Shown here: one piece after another, positions 2,586 to 54,105 of the stretch | Position numbering within the stretch: position 1 is the stretch's first letter | Layout of the letters: each line of letters opens with the position of its first letter | Assembly (NCBI RefSeq): GCF_058153355.1 | Contig: NZ_CM177019.1 | Length of the DNA stretch: 64,000 nucleotides | Reading direction: 5' to 3' (one strand) | The notes under the pieces: model-generated | Database searches by the model: none | Told to the model about the DNA's origin: nothing | What the model saw: only the letters and a program-made list of their open reading frames with translations | Program-made: the position numbers and the translations under genes

Positions 2586-3977
2586 ATGGATTTTCCTTCC
2601 TTACCTTCTTTGCCCTCTTTGTTTTCTTCATCTTCCGGAACGACCTGGCGCGATAATCTTTACGACGCTTCATTTCGTGGCGTTCCGTTTTCGGTGGAGA
2701 GCGACGAGGGTTCGTTCGGACGCCGCGTTCAGGTCCATGAATACCCAAACCGTGATAAACCGTACACGGAAGATCTCGGGCGTGCCACGCGACGGCTGAC
2801 GATTAATGCGTATCTCGTTGGTGATGATTACGCAGAGCAGCGCGACAGGCTGATTACCGCGATTGAAACCGCCGGGCCGGGGACACTGATCCATCCGCAG
2901 TTCGGTGAAATGCAGGGCTGTATTGACGGACAGGTGACCGTTTCTCACTCCGGCACTGAAGGCCGTATGTGCCGGGTTTCATTTCAGTTTGTTGAGAGCG
3001 GGGAACTGTCATTTCCGGTCGCCGGAGCCGCAACTGCCAGAAAACTGGAGGCGTCGTCCGGATTCCTGGATGAGCTGATTGAAGACATGTCCGGTGATTT
3101 TGAGCTCGCGGGAATACCGGACTTTATTCAGAACGATGTTATTGCCCGGGCAACCGATATGCTGGGAACCGTTCAGACAGCTTTCAAAATGGTTAATTCT
3201 GCGGTTTGTGCCGGAATGAGACTGATGCAGGGTGATTTATCTGTCATTCTGATGCCGCCGTCGGTTGCCAGTGATTTTGTGCATACGTTGCAGGATACCT
3301 GGCGGGCCGGAACCCGGCTGGTGGATAACACACAGGATCTGGTGCAGTCCATAACGACAATGTCCGGCATTACGCTGGATCCAGGACTGGCACCGCGTGC
3401 GGTGTGGCCCACAGATTCCGCATCGGTTATCAGGCAAAAACAGCAGACAAACCTTGTGGCTGCTGTCATCCGGACGACGGCAATCAGCGAAGCCACAAGG
3501 GCGGTCACTTCACTGCCACAACCCGGAAGCCTGGTGAAAAATCAGCAGGCGGTTGTGGCTGTTGGTGGTTCCACTGAACGTCAGTCCGATATTATTCACG
3601 TTTCTCATCCGGCACTTGACAGCGTGGCAGCCAGCACAGGACAGGATGAGAGAGCGCAACCACCCACGCGGGAAAATCTCACCATCATACGCGAATCGCT
3701 GAACGCGGCGATTGAACAGGAGCTCAGGCGTACGGCGGATGACAGGCTGTTTTTTCAGCTGACGTCATTACGTACAGAACTGAACCGGGATATTCAGGCG
3801 CGTCTGGTTCAGACGGAGGAAACCGCAGAGCGAACGCCAGCGGAAGTTCTGCCTGCGCTTGTTCTGGCTGCGTCATGGTACGACGATGCGTCCCGTGAAA
3901 CTGATATCCTGGATCGAAATGCCATCTCTCATCCGGGCTTTGTTCCGGTCAGGGCATTAAGGGTACCCGTCAGATGA
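2586..3977 (+). CDS. Phage DNA circulation protein (Mu gp43/N-like)
   Basis: 463 aa; N-terminal region TWRDNLYDASFRGVPFSVES...VQVHEYPNRDKPYTEDLGRATRRL resembles the DNA circularisation family; position after tape measure. Confidence 0.65.
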   Translation: MDFPSLPSLPSLFSSSSGTTWRDNLYDASFRGVPFSVESDEGSFGRRVQVHEYPNRDKPYTEDLGRATRRLTINAYLVGDDYAEQRDRLITAIETAGPGTLIHPQFGEMQGCIDGQVTVSHSGTEGRMCRVSFQFVESGELSFPVAGAATARKLEASSGFLDELIEDMSGDFELAGIPDFIQNDVIARATDMLGTVQTAFKMVNSAVCAGMRLMQGDLSVILMPPSVASDFVHTLQDTWRAGTRLVDNTQDLVQSITTMSGITLDPGLAPRAVWPTDSASVIRQKQQTNLVAAVIRTTAISEATRAVTSLPQPGSLVKNQQAVVAVGGSTERQSDIIHVSHPALDSVAASTGQDERAQPPTRENLTIIRESLNAAIEQELRRTADDRLFFQLTSLRTELNRDIQARLVQTEETAERTPAEVLPALVLAASWYDDASRETDILDRNAISHPGFVPVRALRVPVR

Positions 3978-5029
3978 ATAATACCGTTTTACTTCGGGTT
4001 TCCGGTCGCGAATGGGGCGGCTGGACATCCGTCCGTATCAGTGCGGGCATTAACCGTATTGCCCGGGATTTTAATGTTGCCATTACCACCCGCTGGCCCG
4101 GAAGCCGGGATTATCAACCCCGGATAAAAAATGGTGAGCTGGTTGAAGTGCTTATCGGGGATGAGCCTGTGCTCACCGGATATGTGGAGGCACTACCGCT
4201 TCGTTATGACGCCAGCAGCGTCAGCATGGGAATTGTCGGGCGAAGCAAAACAGCCGATCTGGTTGACTGCTCTGCTTTGCCACTCCAGCAGAGCGGAAAA
4301 AACCTGCTCAGAATAGTCAGTGAACTGGCTGCGCCATTTGGCATCACCGTTGTTGATGCTGGCGTGCCGCAGACAGCGGTGATTGATGCCCAGCCGGAAC
4401 ACGGCGAAACCGTTGCCGATTGTCTTAACCGGTTACTGGGGCAGGTTCAGACGCTGGCTTATGACGATGAATGCGGGCGACTGGTTCTGGGAAAACCCGG
4501 AACAGGTAAAGCGGCGACGGCGCTGGTGCTGGGAGAGAATATTCTTTCCTGTGACACGGAAAGAAGCATCAGAGAGCGGTTTTCTGAATATCAGGTCAGT
4601 GGGCAGCGCCCGGGCAACGACGATGATTTTGGTGAGGCCACCATTGCCGCAATACGTCAGACCATTCAGGACAGTGGCGTGACCCGTTATCGCCCTTTGT
4701 TGATTCAGCAGTCAGGCACAGCAACGACAGCAACCTGTAAGGCCCGTTGTGAATTTGAAGCGCGCCAACGGGCTGCGCTTACCCGTGAGACAACATATAC
4801 GGTTCAGGGCTGGCGGCAGGGCAGTGGCGCGTTATGGCGTCCGGGGTTATCTGTCATCGTTTTCGACCCGCTGAATAATTTTGATCATGATGAACTGGTG
4901 ATCGCAGAAGTTACCTATAACCATGATGACCGGGGCACGACGACTGAATTACGGGTTGGCCCGGCAGATGCTTATCTCCCCGAGCCTGTTACCGCCAGGA
5001 AGAAAAAAAATGTTGAGGAGGATTTCTGA
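3974..5029 (+). CDS. Baseplate hub protein (Mu gp44/P-like)
   Basis: 351 aa; start overlaps the upstream stop; position in a Mu-like tail module. Confidence 0.6.
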   Translation: MNNTVLLRVSGREWGGWTSVRISAGINRIARDFNVAITTRWPGSRDYQPRIKNGELVEVLIGDEPVLTGYVEALPLRYDASSVSMGIVGRSKTADLVDCSALPLQQSGKNLLRIVSELAAPFGITVVDAGVPQTAVIDAQPEHGETVADCLNRLLGQVQTLAYDDECGRLVLGKPGTGKAATALVLGENILSCDTERSIRERFSEYQVSGQRPGNDDDFGEATIAAIRQTIQDSGVTRYRPLLIQQSGTATTATCKARCEFEARQRAALTRETTYTVQGWRQGSGALWRPGLSVIVFDPLNNFDHDELVIAEVTYNHDDRGTTTELRVGPADAYLPEPVTARKKKNVEEDF

Positions 5030-26046: not shown

Positions 26047-26674
26047 TATGTATTCCCTTGTGATTATAATCTTCATGAATATAACAATAAGTGCCGTTAT
26101 CCAAAAAAAAGCACATTTGGATACTATTCTATGAAGTTCATTTTATTTTAAGGATTACATGTAACAAATGTATTTAAAAGATTGCAAAATGTTTCTAATC
26201 TATTTAATATAATTCATGCAAATGAATTATGAATATAACCATTCATGATGGTTATGGATGTATATCAATGAGTTATGAATTTTATGGAAAGATAGGGAGT
26301 GTCAATGATTTTTGCGCCAGACGGCCTATGTGATCGCGCGCACATTAATGAAGGCATAAAAAAAGCCGGCATCATGCCGGCCCAAAAAATATAAACAAGA
26401 CGATAAAAGGCTAATAACGGGGTTATCATGACACAGAAATCTAAAAAGGTATAATTGTATTCAGTGCTAATGTATTGTTTGGGTGAATTAATAAAACCAT
26501 TATCCAAGATAAAAATAAATCTTTATTGCTGTTTTTCCGGTAATTATTGCCGTTGCGCAAAAACTATCTATTTGCTCAAAAAATGATTGAGTCTTGACTG
26601 ACTCATCCAATGTGGAAAAATGTGACTTTTATCACATAATAGTACTAAGTCTGAATTTTCCAGGTTATCTCAAA

Positions 26675-34782: not shown

Positions 34783-34870
34783 AACACATCAGATTTCCTG
34801 GTGTAACGAATTTTTTAAGTGCTTCTTGCTTAAGCAAGTTTAATCCCGACCCCCTCAGGGTCGGGATTTT
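34783..34870 (+). ncRNA. dsrA: DsrA small regulatory RNA
   Basis: aacacatcagatttcctggtgtaacgaattttttaagtgcttcttgcttaagcaagtttaatcccgaccccctcagggtcgggattt matches DsrA as recalled, with terminator hairpin and T-run. Confidence 0.9.
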
Positions 34871-50090: not shown

Positions 50091-51173
50091 TTAGAACTGG
50101 TAAACCAATCCTACAGCAACGATATCATCGGTAGCAACGCCAGATGCTTTCGTGAAATCGCTCTTATCAATCAGGTTGATTTTGTAATCAACAAAAGTGG
50201 ACATATTTTTGTTGAAGTAATAGGTTGCACCTACATCAATATATTCAACCAGGTCCTGATCACCCCACGCACCCAAGTCTTTTCCTTTAGATTGCAGGTA
50301 AGCAACGGACGGACGCAGACCGAAGTCGAACTGATATTGTGCAACTACTTCGAAGTTTTGTGCTTTGTTGGCAATATGGTTATTACCAAAAACAGTCATG
50401 TTCTGGGTTTCAGAATAGGTGGTAGCCAGATAGATGTTGTTCGCATCATATTTCAGACCAGCTGCCCATACTTCAGCATTTTGACCAGATGCATTCAGGC
50501 TGTTGTTACCGTAGATAACCTGATCATTAGTGCGGTCAGATTTAGCATAGGTTGCACCTACACCGAATCCTTCATACTCATAAGTAGTGGAGAAACCGAA
50601 ACCATCACCGTTAGCTTCAGTTACGTCAGTGCGGTCATTTTTACCCTGATACTGAGCAGCAAAGTTCAGACCATCAACCAGACCAAAGAAGTCGTTGTTA
50701 CGATAAGTTGCAACACCTGTGGTGCGACCAGTCATGAACACATCTGTTTGGGTCCAGGTATCGCCACCGAATTCTGGCAGAACGTCGGTCCATGCACCGA
50801 TATCGTATGCTACACCGTAGTTACGGCCATAATCGATGGAGCCGTAGTCACCGAATTTCAGGCCAGCGAAGGCAAGACGGGTTTTATCTTTGGAAGAACC
50901 TTGAGATTCAGCACGGTTGCCTTTGAATTCATATTCCCACTGACCGAAACCAGTCAGTTGATCGTTGATTTGGGTTTCGCCTTTGAAGCCCAGACGAACA
51001 TAAGTTGTGTCGCCATCATCTGCATCGTTAGAAGAGAAGTAGTGCTTAGCATTAACTTTTCCGTACAGATCCAGCTTGTTACTGTCTTTATTGTAAATCT
51101 CTGCTGCCTGAGCAGACATCGCCATCAGTACTGATGCAGCTACAGCAGAAATTGCCACTGTTAATTTTTTCAT
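50091..51173 (-). CDS. OmpC/NmpC-family outer-membrane porin (prophage-type)
   Basis: 360 aa; signal peptide [24 protein letters not shown]-terminal VGLVYQF; several downstream hairpins. Confidence 0.8.
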
Positions 51174-51504
51174 CGTGAGCCCTTTTATTTGAACTATTAT
51201 TTAAAAATGATGTCACTGCACCACAAATATTCATCTAATCAATGAGATTATTTCAAGATGTAAGTTTTAGTTTCTCATTTAAATTGTGAAGTAGATCCCT
51301 ATTTTTATCTGAACTGTTTCTATTGCACACAATGCATGACTATTTTGTGAACGAATATAAATTTGGTAGTCAAATTATATTAAAGGTTGTTATTTATGAT
51401 TGACTCATAATTTATTTATTTAATTTAAATAGCCTAAAAATAACCATGGAGATTATTTGCATGATATTTGTTTAGATTTGTTAATGTAGTTGAGGTGATT
51501 TTAT

Positions 51505-52177
51505 TTAATACGCAATATAGCGCCGCTTGATATTAGTTCTATTTTTTTTTTGCGTAAGATAGATGAGACAAACTGAGACGCATAATGGTTTGCAAGGCTC
51601 TAATACTTTGATGTTGAGGATGTGATGGGGCATGTACGTGCATAGTACAATGATGTCCATGCCGGTGTGGATAATCTCCAGGCTTATCCGGTGCGCCGTA
51701 AAACCCCGTCCTTCAGGGCGGGGATATAAGGCGCGGTTTTCCACCTGACCAGGTGTTTGCTGTTGTTCAATGTATTGGCGGATGACGGATATTGGCGCAC
51801 CTCCGCAGCTACTGGCAAAATAGCCGGGACTCCACAAAACGCCTTTGTAGTAATACCTGACTGCAATATCTGGTCGATCTCGTCGCAGTAATCTACCCGA
51901 TACGCCTTTGTGGCTGTTTACCAGACTGGATATCGCCAGTTTGGGAGGATAGTTAATTAACAAATGGACGTGATTCTGGTTCGCCATCCATTTCAACCAG
52001 TTCAGCTTCAAAATCAGCACATACATTTGAAAAGTAAGTGCGTAGTTTTTCTGTCGCGTCATGGTCAAAAATCTGACGTCGGTATCTGGTGACAAAGACC
52101 CGGTGAACATGCATCAGAAAAACACAGTGCCTTCCACGCCGGATATCGGTTTCTTTTTTCACAGACCAAAGTATCAT
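51505..52177 (-). pseudogene. IS200-type Y1 transposase TnpA, frameshifted (3' limit approximate)
   Basis: N-terminal ORF 51953-52177 and a C-terminal part in another frame (NQNHVHLLINYPPKLAISSLVNSHKGVSGRLL...APISVIRQYIEQQQ); one extra base near 51970-51980 separates the frames. Confidence 0.6.
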
Positions 52178-53440
52178 TTGGCCTGTGAAACGACTACAAG
52201 CATTTAAATTCCAGTTAAGACCAGGTGGTCAACAGGAGCGTGAAATGAGGCGCTTCGCAGGCGCATGTCGTTTCGTTTTCAATCGTGCTCTGGCACGTCA
52301 GAATGAGAATCATGAGGCCGGTAATAAATACATCCCTTACGGGAAAATGGCTTCCTGGCTGGTTGAGTGGAAAAATGCCACTGAAACGCAATGGCTTAAA
52401 GATTCGCCCTCACAGCCATTGCAACAGTCACTGAAAGACCTTGAGCGGGCTTACAAAAACTTCTTCCAGAAGCGGGCTGCTTTTCCCCGATTCAAAAAGC
52501 GGGGACAGAATGATGCATTCCGCTACCCGCAGGGCGTTAAGCTCGATCAGGAAAACAGCCGTATTTTTCTGCCGAAACTGGGCTGGATGCGCTACCGGAA
52601 CAGCCGTCAGGTCACGGGTGTTGTGAAAAATGTCACGGTCAGCCAGTCCTGCGGTAAGTGGTACATCAGTATTCAGACAGAAAGTGAAGTATCCACTCCG
52701 GTTCATCCTTCAGCATCAATGGTCGGGCTGGATGCTGGCGTGGCTAAACTCGCCACGCTGTCAGATGGCACAGTCTTTGAGCCTGTAAACAGTTTTCAGA
52801 AAAACCAGAAGACGCTGGCGAGACTTCAGCGACAGTTAAGCCGCAAGGTCAAATTCAGCAACAACTGGCAGAAGCAGAAACGCAAAATACAGCGACTGCA
52901 TTCCCGTATCGCAAATATCCGCAGGGACTACCTTCACAAAGTCACAACGACCGTCAGCAAAAACCACGCAATGATAGTCATTGAGGATTTGAAGGTCAGC
53001 AACATGTCAAAGTCAGCAGCGGGTACGGTCAGCCAGCCGGGGCGCAATGTCCGGGCAAAATCAGGTTTAAACCGTTCGATACTGGATCAGGGCTGGTATG
53101 AAATGCGCCGCCAGCTTGAGCACAAGCAGCTCTGGAGTGGCGGTCAGGTGCTTGCTGTTCCGCCAGCGTACACAAGCCAGCGTTGCGCGTGCTGTGGTCA
53201 TACAGCGAAAGAAAACCGCCTGTCACAAAGTAAATTCAGATGCCAGGTATGTGGATATACAGCGAACGCCGATGTAAATGGCGCTCGTAACATTTTAGCG
53301 GCGGGGCACGCCGTTCTTGCCTGTGGAGAGATGGTGCAGTCAGGCCGCCCGTTGAAGCAGGAACCCACCGAAATGATTCAGGCGACAGCCTGAACGTAGC
53401 AGGGATCCACGTCCTTCAGGGCGTGGAGGATGTCAACAAA
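51660..53440 (+). mobile_element. IS200/IS605-family element (divergent tnpA and tnpB); boundaries approximate
   Basis: Matching subterminal hairpins ccccgtccttcagggcgggg (51704-51723) and ccacgtccttcagggcgtgg (53407-53426); Y1-type tnpA plus tnpB. Confidence 0.7.
52185..53393 (+). CDS. TnpB (IS605 OrfB-family RuvC-like nuclease)
   Basis: 402 aa; C-terminal zinc finger CACCGH...[18 protein letters not shown]; full length. Confidence 0.85.
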
Positions 53441-54105
53441 CAGGTTGAATTAACTTCGCGCCCTGGTTTTTGACATTACCCACCGCGCGCGACACAGGGT
53501 GCCAGGTGAACTGGTTTGCTGGAACACAGCCACTGGCAGAAATTTCAGAGGCTTCTTTACCGCTAATCTCTTGCCGCATCCATTCCCGCGCAGCTTCTGG
53601 CGACAGTACCAGCGGGCGGCGGTCATGAATATCTACCAGACCCTGGTCTGCTGCTGCAGTGACAATTAAAAATCCTTCGGCTTCGTCACCACGCTCAAAC
53701 GGTGTGCTACCTATCGCGGCTATAAAAACAGGTTGTCCATCAGCGCGATAGATAAAATAAGGCTGTTTTTTTGTCGCCTTCTTTTTTCCACTCAAACCAG
53801 CCATCGGCAAAACAGATTGCCCGACCATGTTGCCAGAGCGGTTTAAACATACGACTGGTTGCCGCAGTTTCTACGCGGGCGTTAATCAGCGGCGGTTTAT
53901 CCCACCATCCGGGAGCATATCCCCAGAAAACCGGATCCAGATGAAGGTGTTCATCACGTTCACTGAGCAGAAGAACTTTGGTTCCCGGCGCGACGTTGTA
54001 TCTGCCAATGGGTTCGGGATCGTAGGGAATATCGCGTTCAATATCTTCCGCGAGAAGCGCAAGGTAATCTTCACGCGTTTGGGATTGGGCAAAGCGTCCA
54101 CACAT
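53433..54105 (-). pseudogene. yedK: SOS-response-associated peptidase YedK, frameshifted
   Basis: N-terminal ORF (MCGRFAQSQTREDY...) and C-terminal ORF (...QPYFIYRADGQP...) in different frames; a 7-T run at 53766-53772 (7 A on the coding strand) where the recalled E. coli gene has 6. Confidence 0.7.

Follow-up and report, generated by a model that had tools for sequence, protein, structure and literature searches.

We analysed a 64,000-nucleotide (nt) stretch of DNA (the window; NCBI RefSeq assembly GCF_058153355.1, contig NZ_CM177019.1), in which a locus beside yedK carries an intact tnpB gene and a disrupted tnpA gene. The locus is very probably a single copy of IS609, an element of the IS200/IS605 family, with a tnpA gene killed by a one-base insertion and with tnpB and both transposon ends intact. 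The whole element occupies positions 51688–53436 (plus strand) and comprises 1,749 bp, or 1,748 bp minus the extra base. A first-pass annotation of the window had assigned the locus to 52185–53440, an extent that is too short. The identity of the element follows from near-identical Escherichia coli copies, in some records of which PGAP names tnpA an ‘IS200/IS605-like element IS609 family transposase’. In particular, DNA identity to the E. coli IS609 copies listed is 96.9–98.5% over 100% of the element, identity to the nearest E. coli relative (hereafter L002) is 99.8% over the element, and the best identity of the locus to complete E. coli genomes is 99.3%. RefSeq annotates the element in E. 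coli genomes as tnpA together with insQ, or ‘RNA-guided endonuclease TnpB’; the IS609 copy at yedK is an already known, annotated element, and its state of decay is ordinary.

Megablast of positions 51200–53700 against 5,426 complete E. coli genomes identified the element with the same flanks at yedK in 1,092 genomes, and IS609 at any locus, with at least 80% of the element length covered, in 4,858. Annotation of the copies beside yedK gives tnpA as an IS200/IS605 family transposase and insQ as an ‘RNA-guided endonuclease InsQ/TnpB family protein’. The E. coli loci occupied by IS609 are ydcO, yedK, a TetR gene near ytfB, and sites near yeaQ and near nrdR. No further IS609 copies, solo right ends, or repeats of the element were found elsewhere in the 64-kb window. 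Separately, E. coli plasmids contain short, unannotated matches to the IS609 right end alone (79% identity, 140 nt) or to the left end alone, possibly representing solo ends or miniatures derived from related elements.

Comparison of empty and occupied sites fixes the boundaries of the element. E. coli K-12 is empty at the yedK site and reads ...AATAATCTCCAGGCTTAT|CAAACAGGTTGAATTAAC... (in short form ...CAGGCTTAT|CAAACAGG..., i.e. CTTAT|CAAACAGG, the bar marking the insertion point), and the window has, in order, ...GATAATCTCCAGGCTTAT, the element, and CAAACAGGTTGAATTAAC, with zero duplicated bases relative to the K-12 empty site. The comparison thus places the element at 51688–53436 and establishes that the target was not duplicated. 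The boundaries are also set by the points at which independent IS609 copies cease to resemble each other. IS609 lacks terminal inverted repeats, and its insertion leaves no target-site duplication.

The insertion point is immediately 3′ of a TTAT tetranucleotide and falls within the yedK stop codon. The TTAT (51684–51687, plus strand) belongs to the flanking DNA, outside the element, and constitutes the target and the left cleavage site. TTAT is directly left of the element in all six of six independent E. coli IS609 insertions, each of which ends in GGAGGATGTCAA, and relatives in other genera have either TTAT or TTAC as left flank. The target tetranucleotide, taken together with the established logic of TnpB, makes TTAT the predicted transposon-adjacent motif (TAM); the TAM of ISDra2, the Deinococcus radiodurans element, is TTGAT. 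At the other side, the insertion has split the yedK stop codon, and the element end now provides a Cys codon and a new TGA. Specifically, TCA at 53433–53435 is, on the minus strand, the present TGA stop of yedK, whose open reading frame (ORF) ends at 53433, and the YedK C-terminus reads ...PVC* in the window versus ...PV* in K-12. YedK is one residue longer in every genome with this insertion (223 amino acids (aa), versus 222 aa in K-12).

The two ends of the element follow the rules known from IS608 of Helicobacter pylori, the mechanistic model for TnpA. In IS608, TnpA reads no cleavage site directly; each site instead pairs with a tetranucleotide located just 5′ of a hairpin. TTAC serves both as left site and as target, and TCAA, the right site, is located 10 nt after the hairpin (PMC3201880). 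In the window, a left subterminal hairpin, CCCCGTCC-TTCA-GGGCGGGG, is read from the sequence at 51704–51723 and is conserved in relatives; the left guide tetranucleotide, AAAA (51700–51703), sits immediately 5′ of its foot and, by the rule of IS608, would pair with TTAT. The right subterminal hairpin, CCACGTCC-TTCA-GGGCGTGG (53407–53426), comprises an 8-bp stem and a UUCA loop, and the right cleavage site, TCAA (53433–53436), is formed by the last four bases of the element, placing the right cut 10 nt past the hairpin foot. Both hairpins are on the plus strand, have the same loop, and differ from each other by a compensatory C-G to A-T change. The IS609 copy therefore shares with IS608 imperfect subterminal hairpins, insertion 3′ of a tetranucleotide (TTAC in IS608, TTAT here), a TCAA right site 10 nt past the hairpin foot, and a left guide that fits the target (AAAG for TTAC in IS608, AAAA for TTAT here). 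It differs in the distance from the left cleavage point to the hairpin foot, which is 16 nt here and 19 nt in IS608 (PMC3201880), and in having a TnpA of a different protein lineage.

Relatives of the element provide further support for the boundary. The right end, GGAGGATGTCAA (12 bases), is present in 34 of 34 relatives recovered from other species and is followed by full divergence. Moreover, target and left guide change together: AAAA is found in relatives with a TTAT flank, and AAAG in four of the five with a TTAC flank. This co-change supports the position of the boundary and also the way in which the target is chosen.

The tnpA gene (51748–52177, minus strand), which would encode a Y1/HUH transposase, is a pseudogene with a +1 frameshift at 51973/51974. 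Two minus-strand ORF pieces, 51953–52177 and 51505–52110, match positions 1–50 and 26–121, respectively, of the Pfam Y1_Tnp profile. Comparison with E. coli copies at the same locus identifies the lesion as one extra T (plus strand), GTGATCTGG -> GTGATTCTGG, in agreement with the first-pass annotation, which had located a single-base change that splits tnpA near 51970–51980. The extra base is missing from L002 and from two further copies, L001 (strain R32_14_1F) and L003. With the extra base removed, tnpA encodes a 143-aa protein that is identical to the annotated intact TnpA of L001 and that contains both the HUH motif (HVHLL) and the context of the catalytic Tyr (RQYIEQQ). Programmed frameshifting was considered and rejected, the extra base being present in no other copy examined.

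The first-pass annotation was right about the frameshift and overlooked a second lesion, the loss of the tnpA stop codon. In the window, the ancestral TAG has become CAG (51745–51747), and the reading frame stays open past the left end into the flanking DNA; two E. coli copies and most relatives in other genera retain TAG at this position. Many E. coli IS609 copies at different loci likewise carry CAG here, which suggests either the spread of a stop-less variant by transposition or gene conversion among copies.

A disrupted tnpA beside an intact tnpB had been singled out in the first-pass annotation as worth attention, with the hint that the state is unusual; the comparison of copies indicates instead that it is a common state for IS609 and its relatives. 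Among nine E. coli IS609 copies, the window included, tnpB is uninterrupted in every copy (in L009 it stops four codons early) and tnpA is disrupted in three, namely by the frameshift in the window and by an internal stop in two others, one of which is the E. coli B copy at ydcO, a site also occupied in K-12 strains. Four more E. coli copies have CAG instead of the tnpA TAG stop and are flagged by PGAP as pseudogenes. In L002 (E. coli 2017.17.01CC, 3550–4751), tnpA has no frameshift and is interrupted by IS1, and the TnpB protein is identical; the IS1 insertion represents an independent inactivation of tnpA, indicating that loss of tnpA is recurrent. Many relatives in other genera combine a full tnpB with a tnpA that is frameshifted, truncated, or absent. 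Across tnpB genes at large, about 25% have tnpA nearby, and most such elements are regarded as non-autonomous (bioRxiv 10.1101/2023.03.14.532601).

The tnpB gene (insQ; 52185–53393, plus strand) is intact, starts with GTG, and encodes a 402-aa protein. TnpB matches the Pfam families HTH_OrfB_IS605 (E 1e-14), OrfB_IS605 (E 2e-34), and the Cas12f1-like TNB zinc ribbon (E 5e-23), and aligns over its full length with the solved structures of ISDra2 TnpB (8exa/8h1j; E 2e-55). In particular, residues D183 (GLDAG), E267 (VIEDL), and D363 (NADVN) align with the catalytic D-E-D of ISDra2 TnpB, with no loss of the RuvC catalytic residues, and residues C334, C337, C353, and C356 form the zinc finger (CxxC...CxxC), bearing out the first-pass description of a full-length TnpB with a C-terminal zinc finger. 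The likeness to ISDra2 TnpB thus extends to full-length homology and to alignment of both the catalytic D-E-D and the zinc finger; the two differ in that nuclease activity has been measured for ISDra2 and is predicted by analogy for the IS609 copy. A nuclease-dead TnpB of the TldR type was considered and rejected, the catalytic triad, the zinc finger, and both transposon ends being intact. In published work, IS609 TnpB was purified in order to characterise it biochemically (PMC12781874).

L001 encodes the same TnpB protein (WP_176263772.1), and its tnpB differs at the DNA level from that of the window by 2 synonymous and 0 non-synonymous changes. Among the nine E. coli copies, the ratio of non-synonymous to synonymous polymorphism (pN/pS) is 0.26 for tnpB and 0.36 for tnpA, values that come from few substitutions and that give no clear contrast; both genes are moderately constrained. 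The tnpA and tnpB genes of IS609 are transcribed divergently, as in IS605, and in IS608 the two genes run in the same direction. A gap of 7 bp separates the tnpA ATG (minus strand) from the tnpB GTG (plus strand), both of which point outwards (52177–52185), and the promoter of each gene must therefore sit inside the other gene.

The 3′ end of tnpB and the right end of the element together form a predicted omega-RNA scaffold (53285–53436, plus strand; 5′ limit approximate). An alignment of the last 190 nt of the element, comprising 28 sequences (the window and 27 relatives from other species), yields a consensus fold by RNAalifold with 44 pairs in 8 helices, of which 15 pairs show compensatory changes. 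In this alignment, 96.4% of cells are paired, versus 41–48% when the partners are slid by 1–3 columns, and 0 of 500 shuffles reach the observed values. Helix 8, which corresponds to the right hairpin, has compensatory changes in 5 of its 9 pairs, with the caveat that this terminal hairpin doubles as the TnpA binding site in DNA form; a long-range helix (~53290–53295 with 53428–53433) has variation on one side only. The covariance-model search that the first-pass annotation had proposed was performed with a model built from 21 relatives, all outside Escherichia and Citrobacter. The model matches 53285–53436 end to end (167 bits, E ~2e-51), and its sole other match in the 64-kb window is the left-end hairpin. 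The earlier suggestion that the hairpin at 53407–53426 is part of the guide-RNA scaffold is thereby upheld, the hairpin being the last helix of a conserved structured RNA. As judged from the sequence, the right hairpin would play two roles, as the recognition hairpin of TnpA in its DNA form and as the last helix of the predicted omega RNA.

No Rfam family reaches its gathering threshold at the locus. Weak matches at 53266–53449 to HgcC (RF00062; 21.9 bits versus a threshold of 50) and sot0042 (RF02656; 17.0 bits versus 88) arise because the terminal UUCA hairpin is shared. The scaffold resembles sotRNA and HgcC in having a terminal 8-bp stem and a UUCA loop followed by GGAGGA.GUCA, and differs from them in that those families are archaeal. 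Membership in either family was rejected, the scores being far under the thresholds and the terminal hairpin region alone being in common, and a match to RAGATH-18 (E 0.13) was treated as chance. Transcripts that overlap the 3′ end of tnpB and that have an 8-bp stem and a UUCA loop have been described, and similar ones are found in E. coli K-12 RNA-seq (PMC4615843).

The predicted guide, CAAACAGGTTGAATTA (53437–53452, plus strand), is flanking DNA, and its length of ~16 nt is assumed by analogy with ISDra2, for which the guide RNA reportedly comes from the 3′ end of tnpB and the right end, with the guide supplied by flanking DNA. With the element ending at 53436 and the guide starting at 53437, the guide reads into the yedK 3′ flank, as had been anticipated, and is antisense to the last yedK codons. 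TTAT followed by the predicted guide rebuilds the K-12 empty site exactly (CTTATCAAACAGG). No close second target of the guide was found in the 64-kb window; two matches with 3 mismatches are at chance level (0.68 expected). The K-12 element behind the tnpB 3′-end transcripts is presumably IS609/insQ.

Established work on TnpB from ISDra2, Geobacillus, and Helicobacter elements suggests how the copy may function. By analogy with these elements, the tnpB transcript would be processed into an omega RNA with a scaffold at ~53285–53436 and a guide starting at 53437. TnpB bound to this RNA would cut the TTAT-guide sequence, i.e. the scarless empty site left by TnpA-mediated excision, and recombination with the sister chromosome copy would then restore the element, as in the homing model described for TnpB (bioRxiv 10.1101/2023.03.14.532601). 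With its own transposase dead, the yedK copy cannot excise itself, and in this genome the nuclease is therefore probably without a target and idle. Excision of the yedK copy would need TnpA from another IS609. The first-pass annotation held that the element cannot transpose, which stands for transposition by the element itself and does not extend to mobilisation: both ends are intact, and IS609 TnpA made elsewhere could mobilise the copy. The yedK copy would thus be non-autonomous, mobilisable in trans and otherwise subject to decay.

Several points weigh against this account of the locus. The tnpA frameshift is read from the assembled sequence alone. A crude consensus scan of 51500–53600 found no sigma-70-like plus-strand site upstream of tnpB, and promoter and terminator matches in the same interval are no commoner than in shuffles; expression of tnpB and of the omega RNA in this organism is a prediction from sequence. 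The nuclease activity of IS609 TnpB, the TTAT TAM, and the guide length are argued by homology. Much of the scaffold is coding sequence, and its conservation therefore partly reflects the protein; the 5′ end of the omega RNA is approximate. Finally, an intact IS609 tnpA, which would provide a source for mobilisation in trans, is absent from the 64-kb window.

The copy could alternatively be an inert relic, in which tnpB is open for lack of time to decay and in which neither TnpB nor its RNA is produced or active, a reading that we consider unlikely, though more probable than the other alternatives. The negative promoter scan is in its favour, as is the dead tnpA, which permits no excision and so leaves no empty site to cut. 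The sequence comparisons are likewise compatible with it: tnpB is 2 synonymous changes from that of L001, providing little evidence of selection on this copy, and pN/pS is not clearly different between tnpA and tnpB. However, the promoter scan was crude, tnpB remains open throughout the nine E. coli copies, in which tnpA is often broken, and tnpB 3′-end transcripts are present in E. coli K-12 RNA-seq (PMC4615843).

A second alternative concerns the lesion in tnpA, where the extra base could be an assembly or sequencing error in a normal IS609 with a working transposase. The identity of the repaired TnpA to an annotated intact protein implies that the change is either very recent or artefactual, and a second frameshift nearby casts doubt on the indels of the assembly. 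Specifically, yedK, an SRAP peptidase gene (abasic-site DNA–protein crosslink; 53433–54105, minus strand), is present in two ORF pieces, both of which match Pfam SRAP, and relative to L001 one T has been added to a run of Ts (As on the coding strand) at 53766–53772, which shifts the frame. An indel in such a 6–7-base homopolymer is at a typical error site, and the yedK indel could be either a true slippage mutation or a homopolymer assembly error. In contrast, the tnpA change is T -> TT, outside any homopolymer run. The recurrence of tnpA loss, by IS1 insertion in the closest E. coli relative and by internal stops in other copies, also argues that the lesion is real, and even without the frameshift the tnpA of the window would have no ancestral TAG stop, a condition for which PGAP calls such copies pseudogenes. 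We therefore regard an error in tnpA as improbable. The first-pass annotation had overlooked the frameshift of yedK itself.

A takeover by the host, in which TnpB and its RNA would act as a TldR-like guide-directed regulator or in which the RNA would act as a yedK antisense RNA, is compatible with an old insertion kept at one site in ~1,090 E. coli genomes and with a predicted guide antisense to the yedK 3′ end, but is scarcely credible, given a catalytic D-E-D and zinc finger that are present, unlike in TldR, the same scaffold at several other loci with unrelated guides, intact transposon ends, a yedK that is itself a pseudogene here, and no sequence feature that marks the yedK copy off from other copies. 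Occupancy of one site in about one-fifth of E. coli, together with repeated loss of the transposase, raises the related idea that the copy is kept for a host benefit, either through an effect of the guide RNA on expression of yedK, a DNA-repair gene, or through elimination by the nuclease of cells or chromosomes that lose the region; we give this idea very little weight.

The surroundings of the IS609 copy differ among genomes. An OmpC-like porin gene (50091–51173, minus strand), named ompC in the nearest E. coli relative, is located between ybcM and IS609. L001 and L003, which have the same IS609 insertion, have no gene annotated between ybcM and tnpA, and the gap is too short for a porin gene. 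The yedK–fliE stretch is a variable island, which in K-12 holds yedL-yedN-intG, and homology to K-12 ends 18 bp past the yedK stop. Elsewhere in the window, Rfam families above threshold are CssrB (‘Chromosome-encoded Shigella sRNA B’; 15824–16003), IS009 (16760–16963), rseX (26358–26447), and DsrA (34783–34869). The CssrB match, the two frameshifted genes, and the ceiling of 99.3% on identity of the locus to complete E. coli genomes hint at a possible origin in Shigella or a near enteroinvasive lineage.

The labels due to the locus are IS609 at 51688–53436, tnpA as a pseudogene, tnpB as intact, an omega RNA and its guide as predictions, and yedK as a pseudogene that takes its stop codon from the element. 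Beyond this correct annotation the significance of the copy is small, and no new question is opened by it. The copy is a clean textbook case of the rules of the family, in which target and left guide tetranucleotide co-vary and the insertion site determines the guide, and the yedK-linked copy could be used as a natural substrate in tests of IS609 TnpB.

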